Of a stretch of 54,334 nucleotides of DNA, positions 797 through 53,989 are shown piece by piece. The first letter of the stretch is position 1. Every line of letters begins with the position of its first letter. Both the position numbers and the translations under genes were made by a program. The notes below the pieces were generated by a model. That model was not told the origin of the DNA. It did not search any database and worked only from the letters and a program-made list of their open reading frames with translations. Origin of the DNA: a virus (lineage: Duplodnaviria; Caudoviricetes); the IMG/VR virus record IMGVR_UViG_3300048849_000181, positions 1 through 54,334 of that record, one strand, 5' to 3'.

Positions 797-1165
797 CTAT
801 TTCTCTTTTACAATGCTTTTTGCCTTTTGGCCTACTGTTGTCCGAATGGTACTGTCCAATTCCTTTTTATCTTGGGCCTGTTGAAGGATAATTCCATTCT
901 TGATAAGTAGAGCTGTTGTGAGAGCATCTTTGTCGGCGCGTGCTTGGGTAAGTTCTTTTCGGAGCTCTGTTTTTTCAGCCTCGCAGTTGATGTTTACCTG
1001 GTCAGAACTCGTTCCAAACCGATATACAAAGTACCACATAACCGATATTGCCACCAGCATATAATACGTTGGTGGGGATGCTAGAGCCTGCTTGAATCCG
1101 GAAAACCATGACCCTTTATCCTTAGTTAAGTCGACCTGTCCCATGTTAACTTCTTCTTCCGGCAT
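797..1165 (-). CDS. Single-TM membrane protein of the lysis cassette (holin or spanin-subunit candidate)
   Basis: One TM segment (YYMLVAISVMWYFVY) followed by coiled coil; coupled to the endolysin stop. Confidence 0.45.
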   Translation of the reverse strand: MPEEEVNMGQVDLTKDKGSWFSGFKQALASPPTYYMLVAISVMWYFVYRFGTSSDQVNINCEAEKTELRKELTQARADKDALTTALLIKNGIILQQAQDKKELDSTIRTTVGQKAKSIVKEK

Positions 1166-1824
1166 TAGACTTTATTCAATTCAGCCAAAGTAGCGGGCCC
1201 AACTATTCCGTCCTGATCCAGCCCGTGTTTCTTTTGGAATTCTAGAACTGCAGCTTTGGTGTTTTTACCCAAGATCCCGTCCGCATCAATCCCGAGTTTA
1301 GTTTGGATATGCTTCACATGATTAATATACATCTGCTCATCGGTAGCATGCTGCTCCTCTACTGGAGTAAAGTAAACAACAGCTTCTCGTTTGCGGCGGC
1401 TCAACAGAATTGGCTTACCATCTGCAAACTTCCACTTCTCGAACTCAGTTCTGATGCTCTTGTCGTCCTTGTTGGCGTTTACTTTCTTTAGAAGCGTAGA
1501 TCCCTTGAAGCCCTTAGTGCCAGTGCCGATATTGTAGGTGAGAGACGTAAGCGCATCAAATTGATTCTGATTGATATCATCCCTGGTAACAGAATAAACA
1601 CCAAGTTCAAACTGGCGCACCATCATCCGGAAATATCTTATTGCTTGCTCGGTGGTAAGCGGCGGATCCATCATCTTAACTTTTAGCCCAGAATCGGGGT
1701 AAAACGTCATCCCAACCCCAATCGTCGGGATTCCGGATGAATCAAGATACGGCCGTTTTACCAGGCCTTCTTCCTGCATTATAAATTGAACACCTTTGTT
1801 TGATAGCTGCGTAATCTCTTTCAT
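1165..1824 (-). CDS. Endolysin: GH24 phage lysozyme plus C-terminal peptidoglycan-binding domain
   Basis: EEG..PYLDSSGIPTIGVG catalytic motif, QNQFDALTSLTYNIG, RRKRE; C-terminal ADGILGKNTKAAVLEFQ..GL..DGIVGPAT. Confidence 0.92.
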   Translation of the reverse strand: MKEITQLSNKGVQFIMQEEGLVKRPYLDSSGIPTIGVGMTFYPDSGLKVKMMDPPLTTEQAIRYFRMMVRQFELGVYSVTRDDINQNQFDALTSLTYNIGTGTKGFKGSTLLKKVNANKDDKSIRTEFEKWKFADGKPILLSRRKREAVVYFTPVEEQHATDEQMYINHVKHIQTKLGIDADGILGKNTKAAVLEFQKKHGLDQDGIVGPATLAELNKV

Positions 1825-1938: not shown

Positions 1939-3282
1939 CTACTTCACCTGGAGAATGGAAGCCAAAGAGAGTCCGCCTTTGAATTCATCATCGAAGATTG
2001 CAGGAGCGTATGGCATGGGAACTTTCTTGTAGTTCATAAAGTTCTTGCCATGAGTATAAGACCATGTTGTGATTCCGTATTGAAGTGTGGCTGGCAACGT
2101 CCGGAATCCGGTGGTGATCTCCTTGTACTTAGCGGACCGTTGTACTTCTTCCGTTGGCTTACATGCAATATCCAGTTCCGATAAATGAACCAACAGATTA
2201 TTCTTGGCCATTTCATCAAGACGTTTCTTGAACTGCTTGTAATCCATTTTCAGGTTAGTGTGCATTTGCGAGCTGATACCGTGTACCAGGCCTTTCCTTT
2301 TGAGTTCACCGGCATAGGCGATCACCACGGTCGCTTTCTTACTGGCAGTTTCAAAATCATAATCGGATATGAAGTTGTTGGCAGTCGGCTGCACCTCTAA
2401 AACCCATTTGGCTATTTGCTCCGGATAACTTTCGCCCATATGGGTAAGCGCATAGCACGGTCTGGGCTTGCCATTATCCTGGTGCGCTTCATTTGTTATA
2501 TCCCAGGAGAAAATATCGTTCTTGAATTCCTTTACTGTGGTTTGTACGTGCTTTTTCAGCAAGGCGATGTATTTGTCCTTAACCTTTGCCGCCTCGTGCC
2601 AGAAAGCCGGAAGATTCTTTTCTTGGCCTGGCCAAACGAAACAAGCATGACCATGGACACGCATGCTTTTGGCTTTAGCAAGTTTAACGAGGGCCTTTGC
2701 GTCTGAGAAATCAAACTGCCCTTCTTTCGGCTGTACGTGGCCGGTCTTGATTCCGTTCTCAGGTGTTAAAGACTCAAACTGCTCATAGGTTTTTTCGATC
2801 ACCTTGGCGTTTTTCAGATCACCTTCCTTGAATGCTACGCCCCATTTCACGGGAGATTGTTTCAGGGATGCTGCCGGTGGCATCGGATCCGGAGCGGGTG
2901 AAGGTTTAGGAAATGGAACAATCACGGGCTCCGGCTTAGTTTCAACAGGAACAGGCACTGGTGGAACTTCAATTACGGGATCTGGTTTAACCGATTCTTC
3001 CTTTGCTGGCTCAGGTATGACCTCGACAGGTTTGTCGGGCTGTTGTTCAGGGAAATGTGCTGGCGCCGGGGGAATAGGCGCTACCACAATTGGCGGATCA
3101 GTTGGAATGATCACAGGATCCTCTTCTGGCTTTTCGGGTTCGATCGCCGGTGGCACATCTGGGATGGGCTCTTTAACAGGATCTTTAACCGGATCAACTG
3201 TAATCGGTACCTGAACCGGCGCAGCCTGCTCGGCTTTTATAATTCCCAACAGACGCAATAATTTTAGAAGTAACTTTTTCAT
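1939..3282 (-). CDS. GH10 (endo-xylanase family) glycoside hydrolase with amphipathic N-terminus and long Pro/Glu-rich linker
   Basis: TPENGIK, HGHACFVW, WDITNE (acid/base), QMH, LSELD (nucleophile), ITTW; start reassigned to ATG 3282 (MKKLLLKLLRLLG). Confidence 0.85.
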   Translation of the reverse strand: MKKLLLKLLRLLGIIKAEQAAPVQVPITVDPVKDPVKEPIPDVPPAIEPEKPEEDPVIIPTDPPIVVAPIPPAPAHFPEQQPDKPVEVIPEPAKEESVKPDPVIEVPPVPVPVETKPEPVIVPFPKPSPAPDPMPPAASLKQSPVKWGVAFKEGDLKNAKVIEKTYEQFESLTPENGIKTGHVQPKEGQFDFSDAKALVKLAKAKSMRVHGHACFVWPGQEKNLPAFWHEAAKVKDKYIALLKKHVQTTVKEFKNDIFSWDITNEAHQDNGKPRPCYALTHMGESYPEQIAKWVLEVQPTANNFISDYDFETASKKATVVIAYAGELKRKGLVHGISSQMHTNLKMDYKQFKKRLDEMAKNNLLVHLSELDIACKPTEEVQRSAKYKEITTGFRTLPATLQYGITTWSYTHGKNFMNYKKVPMPYAPAIFDDEFKGGLSLASILQVK

Positions 3283-3306
3283 AGATAAGTTTAGAATTGT
3301 ACTGCA

Positions 3307-3369
3307 TAAACTTACTTCTGCCGCCGACAGCAGGAAACGTAAACCCTTGACAATGGTGCATATTGTCAA
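3307..3369 (-). promoter_or_regulatory. Late-type promoter 2 (GH10 gene)
   Basis: TAAGTTTA at 3307-3314; palindrome TTGACAATggtgcatATTGTCAA at 3347-3369. Confidence 0.7.
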
Positions 3370-3425: not shown

Positions 3426-3545
3426 ATGAAAAACATTGTAATAATCGCGGCATTATTATTGGCTATGACTAGCTGTAAAAAAGAAGATCCGAAGCCTACC
3501 CAGGCAGAAATACAAGCCATGTCAAAGGCTCATAAGGTTATGTAA
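3426..3545 (+). CDS. Very short (39 aa) or truncated lipoprotein
   Basis: MKNIVIIAALLLAMTS-CKKEDPK signal peptide II; ends overlapping the stop of the convergent tail gene. Confidence 0.55.
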   Translation: MKNIVIIAALLLAMTSCKKEDPKPTQAEIQAMSKAHKVM

Positions 3546-6500
3546 GTATAGCCGTTAGGGCATCTCGATACCCTTGTTTAGTCGTGAAATCATCGTTAAA
3601 CAGTAGCGGGTAGTCAGCGTTACCTGATTCAATCACTTTCCAATAACCGGAATCTATGATCCCCCATGTTGTGATTCCGAACTTCTGCACGGAGGGTATC
3701 GCTTTGAATGCATTGAAAATGGTAACGAACTTCGCGGCTTGTGAGGCTTCAAGCTCCGGTGTTAAGACAAATGGGTTTGGTACGGTTCCTTCGCGAAGCT
3801 GAATTGCAAGCTCGGAGATATGGATTTTTAAACCTGTATCAACAAGGCGTTGCAAGTTGCTTGTTATGCCGTTGTTTGACATACTGAGGTAAGTGTGAAG
3901 CTGTAAGCCCCAACCGTGCATCGGTATACCTGCAGCTTGGTACTCAGTTGCAAGCCTAACCATCTCATCAACCTTTTTCCAACCGTATTCCCAGCCGTAA
4001 TCATTAAGGAAGTACAGGCACGTTGGATCTGCCTCATAGGCATACTGAAAAGCTAATTTAATGTAGTCGGGGCCTAATACACGCAACCAAACACAGTTTT
4101 TGAAAACTACACGTGCGGTGGTATCTATGTCTGCAGCTTCAAGGAATGGTTCGTTAACTACATCCCAGGATTTAATTACACCAGACACTGAGGCTGTATT
4201 CTTGTAATGCAGAATTGGGGCCTGAATCAGATCCTTTAGTTTGTCCTTCCATTGTTGGGTTGTCAGGGTTCCTGCCGTTTCGTAGTCCTTAATGTACTGA
4301 GGGATATACGCATCCTTTGCCCATAATAAACAATGTCCGTGAACAGTGAGCCCGTTTTCTTTTGCCCAGGCTACCTGCGTATCAGCATTCGCATAATTAA
4401 AGGTGGTTTCATTTACCCTTGTTGTTGTGGTCTTTAGATCGTTCTCAATCGTGAACCTGGGCGCATGATTGATCAACGTTGTAGTATAGTTGGTATTTGA
4501 TGTCTGCCCTCTCTTTGTCACAAGTCCAAGGGGAAAGTTCGCTGCCTTGAATGTGGTCGGGGTAATATCAATAGGTGGATCAACGCCACCGCCGGTATCA
4601 GGTACGTACCCAGTATCATTGGTGTTATCTACAGGCAGGCTAGTTGGATCGTTAACGGTTATTGATCCAGGCGTTGTCGCTGTTTCATAACCAACGATCA
4701 GCCCGTTTTCGATTAGCAGTTTCTTGTTATCGGTGGTGCCTGCAAATGGTGGGATAATTATAGATCCGGATATTGTCCGTTTACCGGAATTTACCGTAAA
4801 TCCGTCGCGGTCCATTGTAATTTCTTTTCCGTTTCCTCCGGCTCGATACGCCCAATTAGTGAAAAATCCCCTGCGCCCCATCGAAGAAAATCCATCAGAG
4901 TTGTTTGGCGATAAACCCACTCGGAAGCCTGGGCCGTATACAGGAACGATAGTCGGCCTACCAAAGTCATTAAGCTGCAATGTATAACCTTCAATGGCTA
5001 CATCATCATCCATAATGATAACGGCATCACCATCCGCATCCTCGATTATGATATTGTTGTTTTCGGCGGTAATCCTAACCTTTCCGGTCAGTAAGTTCCG
5101 GGCAACTATGTAATCGGCGTTGATCAGGTTTGCGGTGATCGTTCCCGTGGCAGGATCAATAATAGCAGTTCCAGGCGGCAGGTAGTCCACTCCCGTCAAA
5201 GTCTTGACGTACTCAGCCATCCGCTTGAAATAATTGGATTTGCTGATTGTAGTCTTGACTTGCTGCTTGGTTTCCTGAATATCACTAAGCACCCGTTCAG
5301 TAAGCGTGTAGGGAACAAAGTTTGCGATCTCAACAACGATCTTAGTAGAGGGCGTAATCTGCTCCGGAAAGTTAACCGGATATTGCACCTTACTCACCCT
5401 GATCAGCTCATTAATTCCAAGTGCCTCATCCACTATTGTCACCCGATCTCCAGGCTGCAGCATGATGTTGTTGTCTCGGGTATAAAGCGGATCCAGTTCC
5501 AGGCTGTATAGGACTTGAGGTTTGGAATTGGTATTTAGCCATTCCAGTGTAGCTGCCCTTAGTTTAGCCTCAGCAGCGGTAACAAGCTCAGTTGGTAAAG
5601 GCATATCAAACAAGGTATACGTGTCGCCTGGTTGTGCCTGGAAGGTTGCGTTTGGTAGAGTAAGATTGTTACCGTCCTGAGAGACTTTCAGGGTGTAGGT
5701 TTTGGTTAAGTTATCGAAGTCCAAGATGTCAAATTCTTGACCTTGCAGCTCTCCGGATGTGAATGATAGCTTTGGCGTTTCAACAGACTTGTAATCGTTC
5801 AGATCAAAAGATAAACTGTCATCTATTACCTTGAATGTTCCGGACCCTTCTACCCATGCGACCGCATCGCTTATGGTCCCTTTTACCTCTGGATAAATAT
5901 CTTGGTTCTCGTAATCACCTTCCTTGACGCCGTAAAGTGCAACATTGTTCTCCAGATACCCATCATCAAACATCAGCTGAGTTGCGCCATCCCTGTAGTC
6001 CTCTGCTAGGTTGCGGGTGCTACCATAGCCATAAGCACGGGTAACAATGTTTTTGTCGTTCTGGTAGGCGTATGAAAGACTGTACAACCCATTTCCCTGA
6101 CCATATTTAAAAGTGAGTGGCCTTGTTGTGCCGACTTGCTTTGTAAACCGAATTACTTTACCGGTGACATCCCATTCAATTCCGAACGCTTCGGCTCCGG
6201 TGTCAAGCGCGGTTCTGCAAGTGTGGCCGGAGAAGTTAATCGTTTTCGGGTCCAAATCATCACAGACGCCGACGGTCCAACCTGGATCTATTTCGTTTAT
6301 GCAATCTACAATCAACTTAGCAAGTTCCGCGGGTGTGCAGAAGAACTGAAAAGTCCGGTTACCAAGGTGGCGTAGCTTCTTATCGTAGAGCCGGTAAAGA
6401 ATAGATTCAAAAACAACTGAGTATTTGTAAACCAACACTTCATTTTCAACTCCTTTACTCACGCTGGGTACTGTGTTCACGGTGTAGGGTTCACCCTTGT

Positions 6501-6657
6501 ACATGATATACGCGCCCACAGGACAAGTCAACACACCAGGTAGCAAGACTTCGGCCCGAATCTCTTTTGCACCCATCAGCTCCCATATAATTGAGATATC
6601 GTCTCGTAACGGGAATGACTCGATTGGTGTGGATGCTTTTAGGACGTCGGTATACAT
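3538..6657 (-). CDS. Tail-tip/baseplate hub-like (Tal-type) protein with C-terminal GH10 domain
   Basis: N-terminal phage tail motifs (FKYGQGNGLYSL, IVTRAYGYGSTRNL, LQPGDRVTIVD); last ~340 aa have TIENDLK, HGHCLLW, WDVVNE, QLH, ISELA, ITTWG. Confidence 0.85.
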   Translation of the reverse strand: MYTDVLKASTPIESFPLRDDISIIWELMGAKEIRAEVLLPGVLTCPVGAYIMYKGEPYTVNTVPSVSKGVENEVLVYKYSVVFESILYRLYDKKLRHLGNRTFQFFCTPAELAKLIVDCINEIDPGWTVGVCDDLDPKTINFSGHTCRTALDTGAEAFGIEWDVTGKVIRFTKQVGTTRPLTFKYGQGNGLYSLSYAYQNDKNIVTRAYGYGSTRNLAEDYRDGATQLMFDDGYLENNVALYGVKEGDYENQDIYPEVKGTISDAVAWVEGSGTFKVIDDSLSFDLNDYKSVETPKLSFTSGELQGQEFDILDFDNLTKTYTLKVSQDGNNLTLPNATFQAQPGDTYTLFDMPLPTELVTAAEAKLRAATLEWLNTNSKPQVLYSLELDPLYTRDNNIMLQPGDRVTIVDEALGINELIRVSKVQYPVNFPEQITPSTKIVVEIANFVPYTLTERVLSDIQETKQQVKTTISKSNYFKRMAEYVKTLTGVDYLPPGTAIIDPATGTITANLINADYIVARNLLTGKVRITAENNNIIIEDADGDAVIIMDDDVAIEGYTLQLNDFGRPTIVPVYGPGFRVGLSPNNSDGFSSMGRRGFFTNWAYRAGGNGKEITMDRDGFTVNSGKRTISGSIIIPPFAGTTDNKKLLIENGLIVGYETATTPGSITVNDPTSLPVDNTNDTGYVPDTGGGVDPPIDITPTTFKAANFPLGLVTKRGQTSNTNYTTTLINHAPRFTIENDLKTTTTRVNETTFNYANADTQVAWAKENGLTVHGHCLLWAKDAYIPQYIKDYETAGTLTTQQWKDKLKDLIQAPILHYKNTASVSGVIKSWDVVNEPFLEAADIDTTARVVFKNCVWLRVLGPDYIKLAFQYAYEADPTCLYFLNDYGWEYGWKKVDEMVRLATEYQAAGIPMHGWGLQLHTYLSMSNNGITSNLQRLVDTGLKIHISELAIQLREGTVPNPFVLTPELEASQAAKFVTIFNAFKAIPSVQKFGITTWGIIDSGYWKVIESGNADYPLLFNDDFTTKQGYRDALTAILT

Positions 6658-6673
6658 GCTTTGCGAAATATCA

Positions 6674-6736
6674 CGAAGCTAATGCAACAGTAACTCAGGC
6701 CTTAAAGTTACATTTGACAATAGTATATATTGTCAA
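6674..6736 (-). promoter_or_regulatory. Late-type promoter 3 (tail-tip gene)
   Basis: TAGCTTCG at 6674-6681; palindrome TTGACAATagtatatATTGTCAA at 6714-6736. Confidence 0.7.
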
Positions 6737-6867
6737 GGCTTAAACAAAAATCCCACTGATTAGGTGGGTAAATGGGTATAGGGCTTACGTGTGTTGGGTG
6801 GTATATAATCTATCTATGCAATTTATTTACACTTTAATTTTCTACATTTACGCCTCAAACAATAACA

Positions 6868-7065
6868 ATGGAAAAACAAATTAACGTCGGAGATTGGGTA
6901 TCTCACTCTCAATTAGCCCCTGATCACAAACTTCTTGTCGTAAAAGTTGATACTGATATTCTTACTGTCAGATATTATGATGGAAAATTCCACACGGTAG
7001 ATCTTTATTCTTTCGAGGTATCACCTTTCGACATCGATAGGTATAATGAATTGCCATTCGCTTAG
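6868..7065 (+). CDS. Small hypothetical moron protein (SH3-like/YodC-like beta protein)
   Basis: 65-aa ORF opposite to tail genes, VGDWV start pattern, followed by hairpin 7050-7076. Confidence 0.5.
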   Translation: MEKQINVGDWVSHSQLAPDHKLLVVKVDTDILTVRYYDGKFHTVDLYSFEVSPFDIDRYNELPFA

Positions 7066-7076
7066 CATGGCAATTC

Positions 7077-9337: not shown

Positions 9338-10072
9338 TTATGCTATAGTAAATTTGTGTCTGTGATTAGTTGAATATGGTGCTCCGAGTTGGAGGCTGTA
9401 AATTTTGTAGTTCGTAGTCCCAATGGTTACGGTACCAGATAAGGTGTATGTGACGGCCGGGAAATATGGATTATCCAAATCCGTCACACTGGTGATGCCA
9501 TGATCGGACTGCAAGGCCAAGCTTATGATACGGTTGAAAGTCCCTGTCTGCACTTCTACCGTACTTGTAAACGGTACAGCAGTCAAAGCCTGAACGTCCG
9601 CTGCTGTTATTGGAACCGAACTACTTGTTCCGTAATAAATTGCAGAAGTCGGAAATATAAGACCTAATAACTCGTCAAATTCCATTGAAACTTTAGTCAC
9701 GATCTGACTACTTCCTTTTATCGGTGTCAGGCGGCTCCAGGCTGTAAAACCCTTGAACTTGGCATTTACCGTTTCATCGATCTCCTGCACGTAGATGGTT
9801 GCCTTTTGAACCTTGACAATTGTTTCAAGCGCAGCTTTTTTTAAATTGTAATCAGCTTCGCTTGTTGCGAAGATTGTTCCTGTGATTTTGAATAGCCTCG
9901 GCTCATCCCCTGGTACCGTAGTAAGATCCCAGTCAACAACTCCGTTCTCCCATTTATGGGAAAATACCTCTGCTGGATTATTCGGCCGCTCAAAAGAGTT
10001 AACTGAATCTCTGCTTGAATCTGCCAGGAACCCGCAAGAGTCAAAAAGATTTGTTCCGTTTATTTTATACAT
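9338..10072 (-). CDS. Distal tail protein-like with C-terminal extension
   Basis: Directly after tape measure gene; start reassigned to ATG 10072 (MYKINGTNL). Confidence 0.6.
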   Translation of the reverse strand: MYKINGTNLFDSCGFLADSSRDSVNSFERPNNPAEVFSHKWENGVVDWDLTTVPGDEPRLFKITGTIFATSEADYNLKKAALETIVKVQKATIYVQEIDETVNAKFKGFTAWSRLTPIKGSSQIVTKVSMEFDELLGLIFPTSAIYYGTSSSVPITAADVQALTAVPFTSTVEVQTGTFNRIISLALQSDHGITSVTDLDNPYFPAVTYTLSGTVTIGTTNYKIYSLQLGAPYSTNHRHKFTIA

Positions 10073-13000
10073 ATTGGTTTCCACTTCCCCGTAACGATGT
10101 TCCCGAGGAAGCGCTATTTTTTGCAATGGTTTTTAATTCTGTTAATTGGGAATCCATGCGCTGGATCATAATTCCTGTGTTTTCTGCTGTCTGCTGCTGC
10201 CATCTTACCCCTTGCATAGAAGCATCAAGTATTTGCATGGCGGTAGCGTTTCCGGTGGTTTGAAGCATAGCTAATACTTTCAGGTAATCGTATGAACCTC
10301 TTGAAATTCCTTCCAAGGCGTTCGCCTGGTCACTGGTGATCTGCGTAATGTTCTTTTGAAGAGCAGAGGTTTTAGATCCGGAATCCGGATCATCCAAATC
10401 AATCCCAGTTGCCGCTGCAAGATCTGCCAGGTCCTTTTTTGCCTTCTCAGCCGCGGCCATGTAAACGGAACGTAGCTTTTCGATTTCTTCTGGAGACAAA
10501 CTGCTGTCCGCTGTTGCCGCTGAAAACTGATCATAGAAACCTTGAAGCTGCTGCTGAATTAGCTTACCTTTAAATCCATTTAAAATAGACTTCCGGATAA
10601 TATCCTCGAATGACTTTCCGAAGTCCTGGGTACCGTCCGTGAGTTTGCTGACGAAGTCGTCTGCGATTTCAGATAAGGATGAGCCAATATTCTCAGCATT
10701 AAGCGCGTTCTGCAGGTCAACAGCTTGTTGTTTAACCTTGATCAGGTTCTCAACGATCTTTGCCGTAGCATCATCAAGCTTGCCATTATCAAGGTAGTCC
10801 TGAAGGGCGCCCAGCGGCGTGTTCTCCGACAACCTTGTGAATACAGGGTTGTTCCGAAACTCTTTGTCGTATGCTGTAGCGATGCCAGCATTGTATTTGG
10901 CAATCTCATCATCCAGTCCTTTGTCCCCTGTTAAGACAATCTTTCCGGATAGTTTTGCTTGGTACGTTTCGGTGTCTTTCGCTATTTGAGAAAGCGCCTC
11001 AGAGTATTTAAGCAACCGATCGGTTCCATAAGCATCGTTGATCAGGGCAACTTGTCGTTCAAGTGCACTGTTTATTGCGTCAAGCTGCTTGCTCTGCAGT
11101 TCTGCGGAATAAGACCTTTGCGCCTCCCTTTCTGCAGAACGATCAAACAGGCCTTCAAGCGAAGAGATGATTGAGAAACCAGCGCCGAATACACCAAGCC
11201 CCGCGCCCAATGCACTAAGCATATCACCCTTGCCACTGGCCGCTTTCAGATCAGCCATTCCCTTCTTGATGTTGCCGACCTGGCCTACGACATTCCCGAC
11301 AGTAGAAAGCATCTTACCAAAACCCTCATCGACCTTGGAAACGGATGATGCGAGATTGTCGATTTGATTGGCCAGGTTGATCAGTCGATCCGGCATGCGG
11401 TCCTTTAGCGCCTTCTCGGTGTCTGTGATCAGCTTTCTAATTTGATCAGCCATTTCCTTGCTCACCTTACCCTGCAGGGTTAAGGTATCAAGCATGTTCT
11501 TGGCGTTGTAGATCACCTTGGCAGCATTCTCATCAGAAAGGCGATCAATACCTTCAAACAGCCTTTTATACGCATCAAGTGTTTGAACCTTGTTATCGTC
11601 AAGGCTTTTTAGATCTTCCTGGTAACGGAGAGTTCGGGCGGCCTGCGCTTCAGGGTTACCTTCAAGAGTGGCAAAGTCTGCATTGTACTTTTCCATCAGT
11701 ACCTTCCGCTGTTGGCTGTAGGTCATGAACTCTTTTACCAGCGCATCGTATTTCTTCTGCTCGGCGTTTACCTCATCCTGGATACGCTTGTCGTAATCAT
11801 GTAGTCGTTCCAATTCGGCGCCGTTCATTTGGGTAGGATCCTTTGTAAGCAGCTTAGCCCTGCCTGCTTCCAGGTACTCCAGGTATGTATCGTATTTTCT
11901 TTTATTTTCCTCCAGTGTTAAGTTATAAACAGTGTTGTCATTTAACCGGTGTTCGTCCGCAGCATCCTTGCCTAATCTGGTCTTGTATTCCTCATACTCA
12001 GCATACAAGCCTTTTTGTTTATCCAGTTCGATCTTTACCTTTTCCGTAGTTTGTCTATACTGAAGGTCAGAGATAGCCTGGTCCCGGGTTTCAGTCAGCT
12101 TGGATGTATCTACCAGGTGAAGCTTGTTCTTTGGATCCGCATTGAACTTGGCCGCTTCGTCGGCGATGCGCTTGAACTTATCACGGATGGCTTGCAACTC
12201 AGACTCATCTTTGGTTGCTGATTTACGCGTGTATTCGGCATTAATCTCGTCGATACGTTTTTGCAAGGATTCTTGTTGCTTAATCGCAGGATCTACTGGA
12301 GTCTTTGGAACCTTGTCTCCTTCTGTTGCAAAGAAGTTAAACTTGTATTTTTTCGCAATAGCGGCGGCATCTGCCTGGAACTTATCAGCTATTTTAGTCC
12401 GGTCATTTGTAAGTTTGTCAGCTTGCCGTGATTCCCTGTTCGCTGCATTGATGATCACCTTATCGGTGTAACCTGCATCCTGCTCAAAGGCGACTTTCAA
12501 GCGCTCACCGATAGTGAGGTTCTCGTAACCGGATATATCATTCGGGTTGCTAATGGTCGCACGCCCCTTCTCTCTGATTTGTTCCGCCTTGTAAGCTTCT
12601 TTGGCAGCGTCCTCTAGGGCTAGTTGCGCAGCGGCTTTCATGAGCGTCATTTTCAGGTAAGCATCAGCATTCCTTATTAATCCCTGCTCAGCTTCATTTA
12701 GGTTCTTAACCTGGCCAGTAGTTTTCCCGATGGTCTCGTTGTACTCTTTGACAACACTGGATTTGCTTAATATCCCTTCTTTCGCCAGGCCAATGTTTAT
12801 GCGCAGCTCATTTACGTTTTTAGCAGCATTAGCATACTCGCTGCTGGACATTGCATCATTCAGCTTGGCTTGCTCCTTTTGGGCATCTGTTAGCTGCTTT
12901 TTAAACAGGTCTAATGATGACAAGTAGTTCATGATCGGCTCAACCGCAAACGCAAGCAGGCCGGCGATACCTATCCCCGGTAAGGCAGCAGCAACGTACT

Positions 13001-13907
13001 TGAGCCCCGTCCAGAGTTTACCGACACCAATCGAGCTTTTTGCGACAGCATTACCCATTTCATCAAAACCTTTCTTACCGGCATTCTGTAAGCGGCCGAT
13101 CTCAGCAGAAGTTTCCTCGATCTTCTGGTTAAGGTTCACGAATGATTGCGGTGCCCGAGCTTTCAACAAGCCCTCGTTGTACATCTTGAGCTTGGCGTTT
13201 AGGATCTCGATCTTACCCGCTGTTCCGGTGATCTTGTTCCCGAGTTCATCGAAGCCAGCTTTACCGACGTTACGCAAACGGGCAATCTCTGCCTGAGTTT
13301 CTCGCACTTTGTTGTTGTATTCGCTTAGGCGTTTGCTGTCAGTAGATGAATCTGCAATGTTTTGGTATGATTGGAGTTCGATCTTTAAAGACCTGATTGC
13401 CTTTTGAGCATTTTGCACAGCCTGGGTATTGCTGTTTGCTCCTGTTACAGCCTCGTTGTATGCCTTTTTGGCCTGGACACCATAGCCTGCGGCTTCACTG
13501 GAAAGCCTGTTCCATTCAGCGGAAGATCCAACAACGGTGCCGCCAGTAACTGTTCCAACCGATCCGGATTTGGCGGCGTTGATTTCGTCTTGTGAATTGG
13601 ATATCTGAACTGGCCTGATCTGCCTACCATTCGCATCGAAGGCAGCATTCTTCCGCTTGATAGCTTCTGTCGCCCGGTCGGTTGCCTTTGCTTCCTCGTT
13701 GGTAGATTTAACAACATCATCAGAAGCAGTCTTTTGCTTTTTAGTAGCCTCGGTTGCCTTTTCACGGCCTTTTACTTCAGCGTCAATGCTTGAACCGATT
13801 TCTTTTTGGATCTTATCGCTGTTCTCTTTTGCAATCTTGGCAATACCGGCCAAGGTCTTCTTGAGTTCGGAATCGTCACCAGTAATCTTGAAATTTAATT
13901 CAGGCAT
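10065..13907 (-). CDS. Tail tape measure protein
   Basis: ~1280 aa, Ala/Lys/Glu-rich helical, two hydrophobic Gly-rich patches; start ATG 13907 (MPELNFKITGD). Confidence 0.85.
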   Translation of the reverse strand: MPELNFKITGDDSELKKTLAGIAKIAKENSDKIQKEIGSSIDAEVKGREKATEATKKQKTASDDVVKSTNEEAKATDRATEAIKRKNAAFDANGRQIRPVQISNSQDEINAAKSGSVGTVTGGTVVGSSAEWNRLSSEAAGYGVQAKKAYNEAVTGANSNTQAVQNAQKAIRSLKIELQSYQNIADSSTDSKRLSEYNNKVRETQAEIARLRNVGKAGFDELGNKITGTAGKIEILNAKLKMYNEGLLKARAPQSFVNLNQKIEETSAEIGRLQNAGKKGFDEMGNAVAKSSIGVGKLWTGLKYVAAALPGIGIAGLLAFAVEPIMNYLSSLDLFKKQLTDAQKEQAKLNDAMSSSEYANAAKNVNELRINIGLAKEGILSKSSVVKEYNETIGKTTGQVKNLNEAEQGLIRNADAYLKMTLMKAAAQLALEDAAKEAYKAEQIREKGRATISNPNDISGYENLTIGERLKVAFEQDAGYTDKVIINAANRESRQADKLTNDRTKIADKFQADAAAIAKKYKFNFFATEGDKVPKTPVDPAIKQQESLQKRIDEINAEYTRKSATKDESELQAIRDKFKRIADEAAKFNADPKNKLHLVDTSKLTETRDQAISDLQYRQTTEKVKIELDKQKGLYAEYEEYKTRLGKDAADEHRLNDNTVYNLTLEENKRKYDTYLEYLEAGRAKLLTKDPTQMNGAELERLHDYDKRIQDEVNAEQKKYDALVKEFMTYSQQRKVLMEKYNADFATLEGNPEAQAARTLRYQEDLKSLDDNKVQTLDAYKRLFEGIDRLSDENAAKVIYNAKNMLDTLTLQGKVSKEMADQIRKLITDTEKALKDRMPDRLINLANQIDNLASSVSKVDEGFGKMLSTVGNVVGQVGNIKKGMADLKAASGKGDMLSALGAGLGVFGAGFSIISSLEGLFDRSAEREAQRSYSAELQSKQLDAINSALERQVALINDAYGTDRLLKYSEALSQIAKDTETYQAKLSGKIVLTGDKGLDDEIAKYNAGIATAYDKEFRNNPVFTRLSENTPLGALQDYLDNGKLDDATAKIVENLIKVKQQAVDLQNALNAENIGSSLSEIADDFVSKLTDGTQDFGKSFEDIIRKSILNGFKGKLIQQQLQGFYDQFSAATADSSLSPEEIEKLRSVYMAAAEKAKKDLADLAAATGIDLDDPDSGSKTSALQKNITQITSDQANALEGISRGSYDYLKVLAMLQTTGNATAMQILDASMQGVRWQQQTAENTGIMIQRMDSQLTELKTIAKNSASSGTSLRGSGNQYV

Positions 13908-13911
13908 GGCA

Positions 13912-13974
13912 CGAAAGTACCCGAAGGAAAACACGCAGGAAAAGGCTTGTTTTGACAATATATACCATTGTCAA
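13912..13974 (-). promoter_or_regulatory. Late-type promoter 4 (tape measure gene)
   Basis: TACTTTCG at 13912-13919; palindrome TTGACAATatataccATTGTCAA at 13952-13974, spacer inverted relative to the other four copies. Confidence 0.7.
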
Positions 13975-14915: not shown

Positions 14916-17063
14916 TTATAGAGTATCCACCTGGATGTTACCCCATGCAGAGTAGTCGTCAACCTCTCCCCTTCCTCTAAAACCTACCTTTGTTTGAGCT
15001 AATAAATTCGAGTCTGTTGCGGTTCCCATGTGGTAATCATTGATGTAAACATCTATTGTTGATCCATTAGCTACAACCTTCACTACATCACCATCCTTGG
15101 CGTCAAACGGACTAGTAAGAAGCGTACTATTGTTATCATCCAAACGTCTTACTAATAACCACTTTCTATTTGTAGTTGAGTCATTTACCCGAACGGTAAA
15201 GAAATCCTTTACAGTGCTTGCTCTAAAAATTAGCATCGCACATCCAGGAGTTGTATAATCCAGCTTTGTACGTAATAGTTTTGCGGTCAAAGTAAAATTC
15301 GACAAACCACTATTAACAGTTGCAAGATTATATCTATCGCTAGTTCCTGCAATCGCTTCAAGTCCAACAGCTGTTACTTCCATACCGTCGTTACCAGAAC
15401 CAGTGGAGGCAACTGCCCAAGTTTTTGTCGATGTTCCGCCATTTGTGGTGAGACCATTAATGTTTCCTCTTGCACCAGCTGCAAATTCATCAAACACCAC
15501 TGGGAGTGGAGAGACTTTAATAAACTTCCAAGATGAAAATTTATCATCAAAGCCTCGCATTTTGTAACCGATTTTCGTTTCGGTTTGATACTGTGTTTCA
15601 GTGACAGTACATTGAAATATTCCGTCAATGTAAAGGCTGATTTTTGATCCATTGCACATAACCTTAATAATTTGTCCAGACGCCGGCTTAATAGAAGTCT
15701 TAAACAACTCTGTTTCGGTACTTCCACTACGTTTCATCAGCCTCCACTTACTATTGGCGCCTGCATTTTCAGCTTGTACAGCTAGCAAGTCGTTTTGTCC
15801 CAAGTACCTAAACACCATGTACATGACGCGAGATGTATAAATGTCTCTTGTCACATAGCCAGTTTCCGTTTCAAGAACATAGTCACTAATTCCAGCTTGC
15901 AGTATTGGGAAATTAAAGGTGTTCTGAGTAGTTTGTGACGCACTTAGGCCGGTTTCATCGATTTGAATCTTTGCAGCCTGATTTGGGCCTTCAAGCGTCC
16001 ATATCTTTGGAGTCGTCCCGCTGGTTAAATCGCCGATTACAGTATCATCATTGCCTAACTCAAAGTCTTGGAAAATCAATGGGCTGGATACAGGTTGCTC
16101 TAATAAGCTCAACACCTTGTAATACGCTTCTTTTGGCTGGTAAGAATAATCAAATAACATAGGATATTGCACTAGACCACCTACGTTATAATAGTTGTCA
16201 CGATCTGAAACAGACCACATAGTTATACCCCATTTCTTGTCCTGATCTACGATAGCCTTATCATAGGCACGAAATATTCCCCAATAAGCTTCTGCTAATT
16301 TACGAGCCATTTCTTCCGTGTAGTCAGGACCATCGGCCTCCGTTCTAATATCAAGTTCAGAAATAGCAACCTTAAAATCCGCGTCTGCATACATTTTAAG
16401 TTTTTCCCTCAAAAGATCAATATCAACCTCTAATCCTACATGCATCTGAAAACCAACACCATGAAAAGGCACTCCTGCTGCCGCAAGAGTAGCTTTAAGG
16501 GCAACTGTTTTGTTAAATCTACCCATAGATTCAAATTGCTGATTGTAGTCATTGTAAAAAAGCGTACAATCAGGGTCTGCCGCCGCCGCGGCCTGGAATG
16601 CGATTCTGAAATAGTCTTCTCCTAATACACGATACCAGAGACAATCTTGGAATGTTCCATCGTCCTTTAACGCTTCATTTACTACGTCCCAGCTATGAAC
16701 GTCGGTTTTAAAGTGATTAACTACAGTTGTAATGTGGTTTTGGATAATCTGGGTGATCTTCGTTACTGCATTTGGAGTATTTTCAAACGCTTTCACCCAG
16801 GCAGGAATATTCGCATCTTTTGCCCAGATTAAAGTATGACCATGAATCCGTAAGCCTCGCGCTTTTGCAAAGGCAACAATTTGATCTGCAGCCGTAAAGT
16901 CATAAACACTTTCAGAATCGCCGTGGACGACGCCGAATTTCATTTCGTTCTCTGGTGTTAACGTTTCTGCATCTGAATCGAACTTTGCAGTATACTCTGG
17001 CCTAGTTAATAATGATTGCTTAATTGCAAATCCCACTGGGAAACTAAAAGTTTTTAAATTCAT
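14916..17063 (-). CDS. GH10 glycoside hydrolase with two tandem C-terminal beta-sandwich (ConA/lectin-like) domains; no signal peptide
   Basis: TPENEMK, HGHTLIW, WDVVNE, FYNDYN, GFQMH, ISELD, ITMW; duplicated C-terminal domain (KVMCNGSKISLYIDG / KVVANGSTIDVYIND). Confidence 0.9.
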   Translation of the reverse strand: MNLKTFSFPVGFAIKQSLLTRPEYTAKFDSDAETLTPENEMKFGVVHGDSESVYDFTAADQIVAFAKARGLRIHGHTLIWAKDANIPAWVKAFENTPNAVTKITQIIQNHITTVVNHFKTDVHSWDVVNEALKDDGTFQDCLWYRVLGEDYFRIAFQAAAAADPDCTLFYNDYNQQFESMGRFNKTVALKATLAAAGVPFHGVGFQMHVGLEVDIDLLREKLKMYADADFKVAISELDIRTEADGPDYTEEMARKLAEAYWGIFRAYDKAIVDQDKKWGITMWSVSDRDNYYNVGGLVQYPMLFDYSYQPKEAYYKVLSLLEQPVSSPLIFQDFELGNDDTVIGDLTSGTTPKIWTLEGPNQAAKIQIDETGLSASQTTQNTFNFPILQAGISDYVLETETGYVTRDIYTSRVMYMVFRYLGQNDLLAVQAENAGANSKWRLMKRSGSTETELFKTSIKPASGQIIKVMCNGSKISLYIDGIFQCTVTETQYQTETKIGYKMRGFDDKFSSWKFIKVSPLPVVFDEFAAGARGNINGLTTNGGTSTKTWAVASTGSGNDGMEVTAVGLEAIAGTSDRYNLATVNSGLSNFTLTAKLLRTKLDYTTPGCAMLIFRASTVKDFFTVRVNDSTTNRKWLLVRRLDDNNSTLLTSPFDAKDGDVVKVVANGSTIDVYINDYHMGTATDSNLLAQTKVGFRGRGEVDDYSAWGNIQVDTL

Positions 17064-29633: not shown

Positions 29634-30698
29634 TTAGATATTGGCAAGGAGCTTCAACAAGCGATCCTTATTATCTCGATAGAAGTAAGGCAAGTTCTTC
29701 CACCCCATCATCCGCTCATTATTGTCTTTGATCCACTTAATTGCTTTATCCGGCAGCGATTCGATGCGCACGCCTTTCTGCAGCTCCTTCACAGCCTCTG
29801 GCGTGTCTTCTCCCCTTGCAATTAAACGCTGGTACTTCGACATCATCTCATCACTCATAAGTATCGGAATTTTAAAGCAAAGACAATTTGGATGCCACCC
29901 TTTCCAATCAAACCATACAGGGTAACTTCCTTCCATGGTCCGGCATAGTTCGCACCTGGTCTTAGGCTTTGCTGTGGCAGATAACCTGATCTCATAACCA
30001 AGCACTAAAGCATTATCCTGGTAAGTCGCACCATCGGCCGCTCTTAACGCCATGTTCAACTCTGTTCGAGCTAAACGTTCGCTGTTTTTTGCAGCAGACC
30101 TATACACACCCTGCCCTGGATTATAGGCCTTCGCCGGCTTACTCAACTTAAGCTTTCCCCTAGCATCACGAACCCGGCGGAACAACCTGTCAGGCTCACG
30201 TAAGTCCTGTCTGATCTCCCGGCCGATTTGCTTCGCACTTTTACCTTCGGCAAGACCAACATCAAGCGCCATATCAACGTTGTTCTTGAACTGTTCAGCA
30301 GACTTCCAAACACGATCAGATAAGGTGAGGCCGTTCTGCTTACGCTGGATAAAAGCTTCCATTCTGTTGGTGGTAGGCTTAAACAGGGCCTCCTTGATCT
30401 TTGGCGGTATCTCATAACCTTCGAGCCGCTTTTCAAAGTAAGCAACGTTCTTGTGGTGCGAGCTGCTCCATGAATACTTGATACCAGATTCAATAATGCC
30501 GGTGGTATTCTTTACAAACTCCTTCATCATCTTGTTAAGCTTACGCTGTATAACAAGCACCTGGGCACCTGATTCAATCAAAGGCACAAGCTGCGCCATG
30601 ATCACGTTGTACTGCTTTTCAATTGCAGCAACCACCTTATCCTGGTTCTTGAAGTGATCCTTTTCGTACTCTTTGTTTATTTGCTCGCTGGTGGGCAT
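29634..30698 (-). CDS. Head morphogenesis (minor head, SPP1 gp7/Mu F-like) protein
   Basis: RLARTE, CELC, WHPNCLC motifs; after portal. Confidence 0.8.
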   Translation of the reverse strand: MPTSEQINKEYEKDHFKNQDKVVAAIEKQYNVIMAQLVPLIESGAQVLVIQRKLNKMMKEFVKNTTGIIESGIKYSWSSSHHKNVAYFEKRLEGYEIPPKIKEALFKPTTNRMEAFIQRKQNGLTLSDRVWKSAEQFKNNVDMALDVGLAEGKSAKQIGREIRQDLREPDRLFRRVRDARGKLKLSKPAKAYNPGQGVYRSAAKNSERLARTELNMALRAADGATYQDNALVLGYEIRLSATAKPKTRCELCRTMEGSYPVWFDWKGWHPNCLCFKIPILMSDEMMSKYQRLIARGEDTPEAVKELQKGVRIESLPDKAIKWIKDNNERMMGWKNLPYFYRDNKDRLLKLLANI

Positions 30699-35666: not shown

Positions 35667-37196
35667 TTAACGTAAGATTCTGTCTTTTATGAGTTTGTTC
35701 ATAGCACAATACATGAACCAGTATGGATTCGGCTTCGAACTCTGATTTGGATGAATTTTGTCAATTTCGCCAAGAAAAACTCCAACAAGTTTAGGCGTGT
35801 GATTATAATCAAAATTAAGGACTACATCTACTATCTCGCTAAATTCATTCTTCATCGAAAATGTTATATCCCAGGCTTGGTGATGGTTTGGCGCGAAGTC
35901 TTTGTCATGCATAAGAAAACGACTAGATGCTTCAATTAAATAACTTCTATACTGATAATCATCGCTACTGTCAATTCCATTTCTATAATCACTGACGAAT
36001 ACATCACTGAGCTTCTTTAATGTCTTAAGCAAATCAATGTAAGTTGGATAAAACTGAGAAAGTATAAATAACATAACTAACAACGGGTAGTCATACGCAT
36101 TTCGTTCCCTGCCATGCCCAATAACAAATGAATAGTTAGGCAACGAGTAACTTCTGAACCTATCAAAGTTTCTGATCTTAATTAAATCATTATCAATCAA
36201 AGCAGAAACAACATATTTTAAGGCGTCGAAGAACAATGTATGTCGATTTACAATGCTATAAGCCTTATCTAGGTAATCAGGATAACCTTCGCTATGGTTA
36301 GCACCAAGGAACTCCTTTGATTTTAATAAGTTATGCGCTAAATTATTTAGATGCTTCTTGATATCAAACTTGAATATCTCTAAAGAATAAAATTTATCGA
36401 TATACCCTGTGAAATCCACTTCAGCACCGAACCTATGATGAAACATATGTCGGATGTTTTCAATATCACACACGAATATTACTTTATCAAAGCCAAATTT
36501 ATTAATCTCCGTTCTACTATCGTGGTGTGCTGTAAATACATTGAAAATTCGAAATACGTTCTCAGGATCAAGTCTATCTAGATCATCAATAATAAGAACC
36601 AATTTTTCATCCTCAACATTCCTTTTTATCCTAGTTGCAAAGTCTTTGATCATTGCTGTTATTTCATCAGTTTCCCTGATGGAACCCTTTGTGAATCGCT
36701 GTTGAGCTAAATATTCAAGAACTTGCAAGCTTTCATCTGTCCTTACATCCTTTTCGTATTTACGAAACTGCTTCCCCACATCCATAATAGCCTCAATAGC
36801 GGCATTAGCATCGTCATATAATATACTAGCAAATGTTTTCACTAGGGGCACTAAATCTAACTTGTCTTTTGCAAATGTTTGAAGGGTCAACATTTGTTTA
36901 AAATCACTTACCACAAGATTTATTTCTTCCTCATACTTGTCTAGCATTTCCATTAAAATATCATGTTTAATTAGCTCCATGATATCAACATTGTTCGCTA
37001 CAGCATAGTCAACTGGGTTAAGAGTTACAACTTTGTAACCGTCTGTCACATGAAAAAAGTCCTTAAGAAACGATGTCTTACCTGCGCCAAAAGGCCCTGA
37101 AAATAATATTCGTATGTTGTTTTCACTTTCAATGTGGCTTTTAAAGTCTTTTGTTACTGTTGTAGTGGGAATGATAATTATTTGTGGCGTATTCAT
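35667..37196 (-). CDS. KAP-family P-loop NTPase moron
   Basis: GPFGAGKT Walker A, LVLIIDDLDRLDP Walker B, GYIDKF; markedly AT-rich. Confidence 0.85.
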   Translation of the reverse strand: MNTPQIIIIPTTTVTKDFKSHIESENNIRILFSGPFGAGKTSFLKDFFHVTDGYKVVTLNPVDYAVANNVDIMELIKHDILMEMLDKYEEEINLVVSDFKQMLTLQTFAKDKLDLVPLVKTFASILYDDANAAIEAIMDVGKQFRKYEKDVRTDESLQVLEYLAQQRFTKGSIRETDEITAMIKDFATRIKRNVEDEKLVLIIDDLDRLDPENVFRIFNVFTAHHDSRTEINKFGFDKVIFVCDIENIRHMFHHRFGAEVDFTGYIDKFYSLEIFKFDIKKHLNNLAHNLLKSKEFLGANHSEGYPDYLDKAYSIVNRHTLFFDALKYVVSALIDNDLIKIRNFDRFRSYSLPNYSFVIGHGRERNAYDYPLLVMLFILSQFYPTYIDLLKTLKKLSDVFVSDYRNGIDSSDDYQYRSYLIEASSRFLMHDKDFAPNHHQAWDITFSMKNEFSEIVDVVLNFDYNHTPKLVGVFLGEIDKIHPNQSSKPNPYWFMYCAMNKLIKDRILR

Positions 37197-42980: not shown

Positions 42981-43865
42981 TTAGCTTATACAATAACCAC
43001 CATGACAGGCGGAATGAGTTTTGGAGAAAAGGTCCTGCTGAATGTTTACATTTTGTATTTCCAGGATTGACCATTTTTTATGGAAGGTATTATCGTTTGA
43101 CATAGCCTCCTGAACAGCTGCCCAAAAATTAATAGACGGATTCCTGATCGTATTCTGCTTGATCTGTTGCAGATTCTTATGGAAACAGAACTGGCAGTTT
43201 GTATCTTCCGGAAACTCGACATCAAACGGCTCCCAGTACTTCTGCACGTCAATATGAAACACCTGGTTTTCGACTAAAGGGAATTCTCCGATCCTATAAG
43301 GCATATCGATGTGTCTTTGGAACCATTCTGTTGGCCCTATCCCGCCCTTTCTCGATTTATTCCACATCTGGCTGTAAATAGGAAATTTATAGTTTTCGGT
43401 AAAAGTGTCCACGCGATCTGATTCATCTGCCCTGTATCCAATTCGCATTTTACAAGGAAGCTCATAGTACATGTAAAGACATTTGAAAATTGGATCGATT
43501 TTCAAGAGCGTTGTACACTTGCTTGTAAAAGCATTAGGGATAAAAGCTTCTTCCCGGATCATGGTGTCGTAGCCAATGCCCCGTACCCAAATGATCTCCC
43601 TACCAATGTGCTGTTCTAAATCAAACATTGTCTTAACCGTTAGAGGGTCTTCAGCTGTAGCTACAAATTCAGGCATGTGCGGACAAAACTTTTGCAGCTT
43701 GTCGTTTACCATTTGTTTCATTTTTGCATCGATCTTAAAGCTTGTATTTGCGTTTGCGTTATGATCGTCGATACATACCAAAGCGAAAATTTCTACATCG
43801 GCCGGATAGTTAGCAGCAATATATGATGAGGTTTTTCCGCCGGAAAGGCTGTTGACTGTAATCAT
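42981..43865 (-). CDS. PAPS reductase-like (PP-loop) protein
   Basis: SLSGGKTS PP-loop, KCT..LKI.PI, IGYRADE, NCQFCFHK, terminal CHGGYC. Confidence 0.75.
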   Translation of the reverse strand: MITVNSLSGGKTSSYIAANYPADVEIFALVCIDDHNANANTSFKIDAKMKQMVNDKLQKFCPHMPEFVATAEDPLTVKTMFDLEQHIGREIIWVRGIGYDTMIREEAFIPNAFTSKCTTLLKIDPIFKCLYMYYELPCKMRIGYRADESDRVDTFTENYKFPIYSQMWNKSRKGGIGPTEWFQRHIDMPYRIGEFPLVENQVFHIDVQKYWEPFDVEFPEDTNCQFCFHKNLQQIKQNTIRNPSINFWAAVQEAMSNDNTFHKKWSILEIQNVNIQQDLFSKTHSACHGGYCIS

Positions 43866-45160: not shown

Positions 45161-45161
45161 A

Positions 45162-53883: not shown

Positions 53884-53989
53884 TCGAGCGTCTCAATTAT
53901 ACCCATAAAGTGTGATACACAAACATTCACATCTTTTAAACACAATTATTTACTAAATTATAAAACCCTAATTTAAAGCAACTTAAGTC

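Follow-up and report, generated by a model that had tools for sequence, protein, structure and literature searches.

The stretch of DNA analysed here, hereafter called the window, is a whole provirus record of IMG/VR (IMGVR_UViG_3300048849_000181; 54,334 nucleotides; Duplodnaviria, Caudoviricetes), with a CheckV completeness of 65%. On its minus strand, at positions 3538-6657, lies a gene for a protein of 1039 amino acids, P0001, in which a tail-tip hub of the tail-associated lysin (Tal) type is joined to a catalytic domain of glycoside hydrolase family 10 (GH10). The gene starts with ATG, its stop codon occupies 3538-3540, and the reading frame is open throughout, with no internal stop over 1039 codons. 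The hub takes up residues 1-450 (5308-6657) and has a Prophage_tail/gp27-like fold. It is followed by a long helix (residues 451-490; 5188-5307), which AlphaFold2 places at residues 452-488 with a predicted local distance difference test score (pLDDT) of about 50, and then by a beta-rich spike (residues 491-669; 4651-5187), which is predicted to be an intertwined homotrimer. A linker rich in Pro, Thr, Gly and Asp (residues 670-702; 4552-4650), with pLDDT below 50, terminates in the junction motif PTTF and leads into the (beta/alpha)8 GH10 domain of clade A (residues 703-1039; 3541-4551; Pfam, 6.2e-61). The initial annotation of this DNA had read a hub of about 500 residues, a beta-rich spike, a linker and a complete GH10 domain from the letters alone; this layout turned out to be accurate by Pfam, AlphaFold2 and Foldseek, and the linker it had quoted is found at the residues just given. 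It thus described the fusion correctly, while it overlooked two more GH10 genes and a tail gene for an SGNH esterase in the same window.

The GH10 part of P0001 is matched by Pfam PF00331 (Glyco_hydro_10) over residues 705-1032, with 206.8 bits against a cut-off of 22.1, and the match takes in profile positions 8-307 of 311. In the AlphaFold2 model, pLDDT is above 90 over residues 700-1039. Foldseek aligns this part with the listed single-domain GH10 crystal structures at target-normalised template modelling (TM) scores of 0.83-0.91 and root mean square deviations of 2.2-3.5 Å. In the PDB, 134 distinct GH10 sequences are matched at E <= 1e-10, the best being 7nl2 (1.4e-38). By structure and by sequence alike, the top matches are true endo-1,4-beta-xylanases, and some of these were solved with xylo-oligosaccharides.

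The motifs ENxxK, HGHxxxW, WDVVNE, QxH, ISEL and TTW (TxW) of P0001 all align to solved xylanases. The predicted acid/base E836 (codon 4150-4152; WDVVNE) and the predicted nucleophile E949 (codon 3811-3813; ISELA) fall in the catalytic Glu columns of the aligned enzymes, and all catalytic residues, along with those of subsites -1 and -2, are kept. Compared with cellular xylanases, there is an additional loop after the acid/base. Further, 21 phage-linked GH10 domains were compared residue by residue with 61 ordinary ones drawn from the best database matches. It was observed that each of the 21 keeps the two catalytic Glu and the Asn that precedes the acid/base, and also the Q and H of QxH, the E and N of ENxxK and the Trp of TxW.

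For the hub, Pfam PF06605 (Prophage_tail) matches residues 115-447 with 46.2 bits, against a cut-off of 31.3. Six PHROG families, of long tail proteins of the Tal type, are matched by the first 470 residues, with phrog_19846 as the best at 3.6e-90. An AlphaFold2 model of residues 1-500, built from 31 aligned sequences, has a mean pLDDT of 84.7. With this model, Foldseek found the monocin tip 9j1k_L (E 9.4e-17) and the tail-associated lysin of phage NF5 (9m7n), and further the Listeria prophage protein gp18 (3gs9), the baseplate chain 6v8i_AE of the S. aureus phage 80alpha, which is named Tail-Associated Lysin gp59, gp44 of phage Mu (1wru) and VgrG proteins. A profile search of the PDB with the Tal alignment gave chance-level matches only (E >= 0.006), to designed repeat proteins. 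By family, modelled fold and gene order, the N-terminus of P0001 is assigned as a true Tal/gp27-like hub.

The spike behaves differently when modelled as a single chain and as a trimer. As a monomer, residues 480-1039 have pLDDT values mostly of 30-50 up to about residue 700, rising to about 68-70 at 630-669. When three copies of residues 480-694 were modelled, the interface score ipSAE was 0.90, 0.90 and 0.91 against 0.00 for the best of three controls, with a partner pLDDT of 83-86 and a contact agreement between runs of at least 88%. Among solved structures, 20 of 30 homomers and one of 23 single chains attain the score mark used; these benchmark counts are only rough here, as the calibration was made with two copies and the tool's own alignments. 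Residues 491-669 are, therefore, predicted to form an intertwined homotrimer, in a model that covers residues 480-694. This prediction supports the 'spike-like segment' of the initial annotation, which had proposed a trimer model as a check. Since the spike models as a trimer, each tail tip would have three GH10 heads, each on its own linker; the tip probably carries three copies of GH10 on flexible tethers.

Relatives of P0001 were collected as 94 matches among 5.8 billion proteins, and Pfam scans were run on 28 of these together with 16 matches from a search of representative sequences. The hub and GH10 occur together in seven proteins, namely P0001, P0005, P0006, P0007, P0008, P0010 and P0099; the six besides P0001 come from other contigs, have the order hub, spike, linker and GH10, and are 42-79% identical to it. 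Two of these, P0008 and P0099, stay under the Pfam cut-off for Prophage_tail and match phrog_19846 at 4e-152 and 1.4e-134, respectively. P0008 is encoded on a second provirus record, L001, where GH10 is fused too. Between the window and L001, the GH10 codons give 94.3% amino acid identity, a dS of 0.78, a dN of 0.035 and a dN/dS of 0.045, while the hubs of the same pair are only 34% identical. At this ratio, purifying selection on the GH10 part is strong.

Two DNA sequencing runs match the window, one from soil, which is possibly its source, and one from leaf litter; the latter has a 0.05 share of words, from which no habitat claim is drawn, and no RNA run is listed. None of the contigs from these runs spans positions 4540-5565, so that they speak neither for nor against the linker junction. 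Over 3856-4435, the GH10 segment is present in the soil-run contigs in two versions, the first agreeing with the window in every letter and the second departing from it at 39 of 313 and at 27 of 289 letters. Many of these departures follow a spacing of three, a pattern suggestive of alleles that occur together and are set apart mainly by silent changes.

When identity is followed in bins along the protein, the GH10 module is seen to be mobile. Compared with P0001, and given as ranges over the bins, P0006 is 93-99% identical in the hub, 90-98% in the spike and linker (residues 481-690) and 24-34% in GH10. P0008 shows 25-44% in the hub, 61-68% in the spike and linker and 86-99% in GH10, and P0010 shows 22-34%, 22-38% and 62-79% in the same order. 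P0025, a carrier of 1384 amino acids that is not a Tal, has no real similarity to the hub, spike or linker, and its GH10 is 62-78% identical. Further, 16 hub relatives of 54-60% identity have other C-termini, including a pectate lyase of polysaccharide lyase family 1 (PL1; PF00544) in P0016 and P0019. In the provirus L010, the Tal is without GH10, and an 830-amino-acid tail gene upstream of the Tal carries one. The motif PTT[FL] lies exactly at the start of the barrel in all eight carrier-fused GH10 forms aligned, and the stand-alone P0032 has TTL at this place; the junction is a plausible exchange point for the GH10 module. The swapped C-terminal domains among homologous tail proteins, for which the initial annotation had advised a search, are therefore present in P0006, P0008 and the hub relatives with other C-termini. 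These alignments show GH10, alone or together with the spike, as a module that is exchanged among tail proteins, and the phage-linked GH10 lineages are shuffled among three tail-gene positions.

Trees were built of 82 and then of 96 GH10 domains, by a quick search, with Shimodaira-Hasegawa approximate likelihood ratio test (SH-aLRT) values as the only support and with the best matches to P0001 as rows. Clade A, the P0001 type, has 12 rows and a support of 98. Clade B has seven rows and a support of 95, and comprises P0006, P0007, P0099, P0003, P0118, P0157 and the L010 tail gene. Clade C, the P0002 type, has three rows and a support of 100. The window carries one member of each. No GH10 with a signal peptide falls in clades A-C, and all 13 host-family xylanases with a signal peptide fall outside them. 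The carriers and the N-termini together suggest that the three clades are phage-only. A single origin of all phage-linked GH10 domains was hinted at under the LG+G4 model (21 rows, SH-aLRT 91), was not recovered under a mixture model (backbone 69) and is not claimed.

The spike and GH10, used together as a query against 1.84 billion representative sequences, gave 6276 matches at E <= 0.001. Among the best 150 of these, the spike is covered only by P0001, P0008, P0010 and P0099, and the nearest GH10-only proteins are 38-42% identical. These nearest proteins (P0100, P0101, P0102, P0105 and P0106) have no signal-peptide-like N-terminus, while almost all lower matches have one. In several, a short beta-rich segment at the start leads into a Pro-rich linker, and the N-terminus of P0106 matches a PHROG tail protein family. 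In 401 sampled genomes of Sphingobacteriaceae, 36 have a match at E <= 1e-55; the places listed in those 36 match the GH10 part only, at 36-42% identity, with none covering the spike. Among the 50,697 phage records of INPHARED, the GH10 domain matches eight, all of them unannotated 'Bacteriophage sp.' contigs from faecal metagenomes with 23-30% identity, and none is from an isolated phage. No PHROG family was matched by any GH10-only protein. A motif scan of 2.9 million IMG/VR contigs, which undercounts because exact patterns were required, matched 13 stretches, of which two were confirmed, in the related proviruses L001/L009 and L010. A full-text literature search on GH10 or xylanase with phage tails, and on depolymerases of Pedobacter phages, returned no report of a tail-borne GH10, though the supplements of soil virome papers might list comparable contigs. 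A full GH10 barrel on a tail-tip protein thus appears to be unreported.

Almost all genes of the window are encoded on the minus strand and are arranged as is usual for a temperate siphovirus. From the right end, regulators of the repressor type are followed by genes for recombination and replication, then by those for the terminase, the portal and the major head protein, and then by tail genes and the tape measure. In the tail module, the tape measure, a gene of 262 amino acids, P0004, the Tal, P0002 and the endolysin follow each other, and the same order is found in the related loci L001-L008 and L010. The tape measure (10065-13958, minus strand; 1297 amino acids) matches phrog_9959 at 6.2e-9, and its L001 counterpart matches TMP_3 (PF20155). 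The 262-amino-acid protein (9338-10126, minus strand) stands at the position of a distal tail protein (Dit) and has no family match; an open reading frame (ORF) of 170-304 amino acids occupies this position in all related loci. The module ends in an endolysin with Phage_lysozyme and PG_binding_1 domains (1165-1824, minus strand). A peptidoglycan-cutting role for GH10 was considered and set aside, since we know of no precedent for it and a separate endolysin is present.

P0004 (7077-9335, minus strand; 752 amino acids), the tail protein encoded upstream of the Tal, carries an SGNH/GDSL esterase in its C-terminal part, at residues 550-740. It matches Pfam PF13472 (1.9e-17) and the tail fiber family phrog_5240 (2.8e-37), and the esterase matches the SGNH part of the 80alpha Tal gp59 (E 5.6e-17). 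The middle part of P0004 matched no family in the atlas search, and self-BLAST revealed no significant internal repeats in P0004 or P0003. A GDSL/SASA esterase is present on the upstream tail protein in five of seven related prophage loci of Pedobacter, Mucilaginibacter and Flavicella. From its recurrence at the same position, this phage group may commonly target surface glycans that are O-acetylated. Between P0004 and the Tal, at 6658-7076, about 420 bp hold no minus-strand ORF of at least 30 amino acids; a plus-strand ORF of 65 amino acids lies at 6868-7065, and L001 has a same-strand gene of 126 amino acids in this place.

As regards the host, 75 of the INPHARED records match P0001. The 30 of these that are listed match its N-terminal half only, at 25-31% identity, and their hosts are Riemerella, Porphyromonas, Bacteroides and Elizabethkingia. 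A scan of species genomes with the P0001 sequence alone found no relatives. The same scan based on an alignment found seven hub relatives, all in prophage-like tail modules, in the genomes of Pedobacter cryoconitis, P. metabolipauper, Mucilaginibacter endophyticus, M. lappiensis, two more Mucilaginibacter and Flavicella sediminum; GH10 is on the Tal in none of these seven. As the nearest hub relatives lie in Pedobacter and Mucilaginibacter genomes, the virus is most likely a temperate, siphovirus-like prophage whose host is a soil bacterium of the Sphingobacteriaceae type.

Some other features of the window may be recorded here. A head-morphogenesis protein of 354 amino acids (29634-30698, minus strand) matches a PHROG family named 'Bxa ADP-ribosyl transferase' at 3e-54. 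The match is limited to profile positions 225-383 of 869, so that it appears to concern the head-protein part and no transferase domain. Cargo-like genes of the early region, all on the minus strand, encode a KAP-family P-loop NTPase (35667-37196), a PAPS-reductase-like protein (42981-43865) and a PcfJ-like protein (43865-45199). At the window ends (1-795 and 51885-54334), no integrase was found among the larger ORFs by PHROGs and, in part, Pfam. The leftmost ORF runs past the record end, and in L001 and L010 an integrase gene is found past the lysis genes; the record is, therefore, probably cut at its left end. A scan for sigma-70 promoters, which does not cover the promoters of Bacteroidota, found 31 against 32 expected, that is, the chance level.

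The second GH10 gene of the window, P0002, lies just downstream of the Tal (1939-3369, minus strand; 476 amino acids), with its likely ATG at 3282. The protein has a short amphipathic helix at its N-terminus, a Pro-rich tether of about 120 amino acids and the clade C GH10. Genes of this type also follow the Tal in L001 (13897-15219; barrel 76% identical) and L010 (7677-8957). A longer form with an extra beta-helix-like module lies beside an endolysin in L023 (4702-7173), a short contig of a Sphingobacteriaceae genome. Genes of the P0002 family are always found between the Tal and the lysis genes.

The third GH10 gene, P0003, lies just upstream of the tape measure (14916-17063, minus strand; 715 amino acids). 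Its clade B GH10 is at the very N-terminus, with no signal peptide, and is followed by two lectin-like domains, for which a likeness to PF06439 is a lead only. The relatedness of these two domains to each other is visible only via P0118, a full-length homologue of P0003 with 56% identity, and the C-terminus found nothing below E 0.36 among PDB sequences. A lectin-like domain of this type is also found at the end of P0099, a Tal-GH10 protein. Terminator-like hairpins (17510-17490 and 14902-14875) lie on both sides of P0003, in a stretch of lower GC (0.39-0.42), and the gene looks like a separately transcribed insert. The GH10 domains of P0001, P0002 and P0003 are 26-34% identical among themselves and are thus not recent duplicates.

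Tal proteins with added C-terminal domains are known from other phages. These phages have Gram-positive hosts, and the modules appended to their Tal are peptidoglycan hydrolases, SGNH esterases or carbohydrate-binding modules (CBMs). For streptococcal and lactococcal phages, 'evolved' Tal and Dit proteins with C-terminal extensions are described (PMC7533335). P0001 resembles these and the 80alpha gp59 (6v8i) in having a gp27-like, putatively trimeric hub with a C-terminal enzymatic or glycan-binding extension. It differs from them in that the extension, attached by a flexible linker, is a complete GH10 barrel of the triosephosphate isomerase (TIM) type, and in that the host of the phage belongs to the Bacteroidota.

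Another known system is that of the capsule depolymerases of Klebsiella and Acinetobacter phages. The tailspike and tail-fibre depolymerases are trimeric right-handed beta-helices, while the GH10 fold is usually monomeric. Swapping of the catalytic part between otherwise similar phages, and virion-borne cutting of a surface polysaccharide for adsorption, as proposed for P0001, are the points of likeness. By Pfam and AlphaFold2, the GH10 part of P0001 is a TIM barrel without a right-handed beta-helix or a pectate-lyase-like Pfam match, and here it is hung by a linker from a spike predicted to be trimeric. P0001 is thus outside the structural class of the beta-helix depolymerases, though it may act like one.

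With the cellular xylanases, such as Xyn10A and Xyn10C of Cellvibrio japonicus (1clx and 1us3) and Xyn11 of Pseudothermotoga (7nl2), the GH10 of P0001 shares the family, the fold, the catalytic pair and the glycone-subsite residues. It differs from them in having no signal peptide or lipoprotein signal, in being fused to a tail protein and in carrying Ala at the second position after the nucleophile. Its identity does not exceed 42%, either to the xylanases of the 401 host-family genomes or to the stand-alone matches listed from the 1.84 billion representatives.

Taken together, these findings make it fairly probable that P0001 is an exchangeable virion-displayed glycanase, whose three tethered GH10 heads bind and cut a beta-1,4-linked polymer of the xylan type at the host surface. 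The hub (residues 1-450) would close the tail tube, and the trimeric beta spike (491-669) would be followed by the flexible linker bearing the barrel. The heads would cleave by the retaining two-glutamate mechanism, with E836 as the acid/base and E949 as the nucleophile. The target would be a beta-1,4-linked xylan-type polysaccharide at the host surface, most likely the host's own capsule or slime layer, from which the neighbouring esterase P0004 would strip O-acetyl groups. P0002 and P0003 may assist, and the tip would thereby reach the outer membrane. The spike-GH10 cassette, or GH10 alone, would serve as an exchangeable specificity module. A capsule or slime made by the host is favoured since GH10 lineages differ between tails that are otherwise nearly identical, and since close relatives have unrelated modules in this place; such a pattern is the signature of receptor switching. 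We infer the enzymatic activity and the substrate and, from family, fold and gene order, also virion display. The proposal of the initial annotation, a virion-displayed glycanase or glycan receptor-binding domain, is thus supported, not proven, and it fits the hub, the trimer, the kept residues, the selection and the module exchange.

Several observations weigh against this picture and are gathered here. At the position two residues after the nucleophile, Asp is present in 54 of the 61 ordinary GH10 domains, and P0001 has Ala; among the 21 phage-linked domains, Asp is found in 11, Ala in eight and Gly in two. Ala or Gly occupies it in 10 of the 11 clade A rows of the LG+G4 tree, with Asp in P0100. 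In work on the enzyme Cex, the Asp at this position is said to support a His that contacts the nucleophile. The activity of P0001 is possibly lowered because this supporting Asp is replaced by Ala, and by this analogy its loss may lower the rate of GH10. Likewise, the distal lid Trp is kept in four of the 21 phage-linked domains against 46 of the 61 ordinary ones. P0009, which is 77% identical to P0001, stops at the linker after 693 amino acids with no GH10, and may be cut by the end of its 3.5-kb contig. L001 and L010 have GH10 genes and no esterase was seen on their upstream protein, so that the two do not strictly co-occur. A literature search on the exopolysaccharides of Sphingobacteriaceae and Mucilaginibacter found no documented polymer of the xylan type. 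The quick search behind the trees, and their choice of rows, also belong on this side.

The same heads may have another target, and this is possible at a clearly lower probability. According to this alternative, the polymer is plant or environmental xylan; the heads, the esterase and the lectin-like modules would stick to or cut hemicellulose in litter, or xylan on foraging hosts, and would raise the chance of encounter in a manner comparable to mucus adherence. The canonical glycone-subsite residues of xylanases are all retained, the closest structures and sequences are true endo-1,4-beta-xylanases, and sister Tals bear the PL1 pectate lyase, another plant-wall enzyme. Pedobacter and Mucilaginibacter are xylan and pectin degraders, and a host from this group would share their plant-polymer lifestyle. 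The PF06439-like domains of P0003, a lead only, are of a kind appended to GH43 and PL1 enzymes. On the other hand, P0006 swaps its GH10 lineage at the linker and the hub relatives have unrelated C-termini, as is typical of host-receptor switching. No known xylan-binding CBM family was found by Pfam in any tail protein, and we know of no precedent for attachment by way of plant xylan. The fuller form of this idea is a virion toolkit for plant cell walls, made of the GH10s, the acetyl esterase and the lectin-like modules, with the pectate lyase in sister phages, and with plant xylan as the first attachment substrate; it is rather unlikely.

It is improbable that GH10 serves as a lectin-like receptor-binding domain that only binds, with its catalysis crippled. 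The Ala or Gly of clade A, found in none of the 61 ordinary domains, and the rarity of the lid Trp would agree with such a role. However, lectin-like derivatives of glycosidases usually lose their catalytic residues, and here the catalytic Glu and their surroundings are kept in all 21 domains, across three clades that share just 24-34% identity. Clades B and C, moreover, retain the Asp.

Very improbable is a role of the GH10 genes as auxiliary metabolic or lysogenic-conversion genes for xylan use by the host, with the Tal fusion being incidental. In a study of a mangrove soil virome, GH10 is listed as an 'auxiliary CAZyme', that is, a carbohydrate-active enzyme (PMC6460857), and soil virome papers treat viral glycoside hydrolases as metabolic genes (PMC6172770, PMC11222151). 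As in these cases, a GH10 or another CAZyme lies here on a soil viral contig; there it is treated as metabolic cargo, and here it is within a structural tail protein. P0003, between its terminator-like hairpins and with its lower GC, is also moron-like. Against such a role, the GH10 of P0001 is in frame inside a structural late gene with no signal peptide. A viral auxiliary metabolic gene is a stand-alone metabolic gene, and this domain continues the frame of the Tal hub. The members of clade A are all without a signal-peptide-like N-terminus and are mostly on Tal, tail-like or Pro-rich-tethered carriers, and the identity to host-family xylanases has the ceiling given above.

An artefact of assembly or gene calling, a doubt raised by the initial annotation itself, could be suspected in an assembled provirus record whose linker is spanned by no contig of the two runs, and is excluded for practical purposes by the six independent proteins with the same domain order, the open frame and the constraint on GH10 relative to a second provirus with the same fusion.

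Enzyme-bearing tail tips are already known, and it is the GH10 family and the geometry of tethered heads that are unusual for phages. If P0001 is the exchangeable glycanase favoured here, the repertoire of phage adsorption enzymes would be extended to a TIM-barrel family, with tethered heads instead of the usual beta-helix spike. In soil virus ecology, glycoside hydrolases on viral contigs are as a rule booked as auxiliary metabolic genes with a share in carbon turnover. On the same condition, a gene of this sort can be a structural module for adsorption, and such counts would have to be read differently. The phage-only GH10 clades would further provide a natural test set for the retuning of a biomass-enzyme fold, owing to the altered residue next to the nucleophile and the near-identical tails with different GH10 lineages. 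Should the plant-xylan toolkit be true instead, the phage would find its prey through the food of the prey, and the three phage-only clades would represent an old line, peculiar to viruses, within a classic family of biomass enzymes. With the host's own layer as the target, the phage GH10s may point to a xylan-like polymer in the slime of Pedobacter and Mucilaginibacter.

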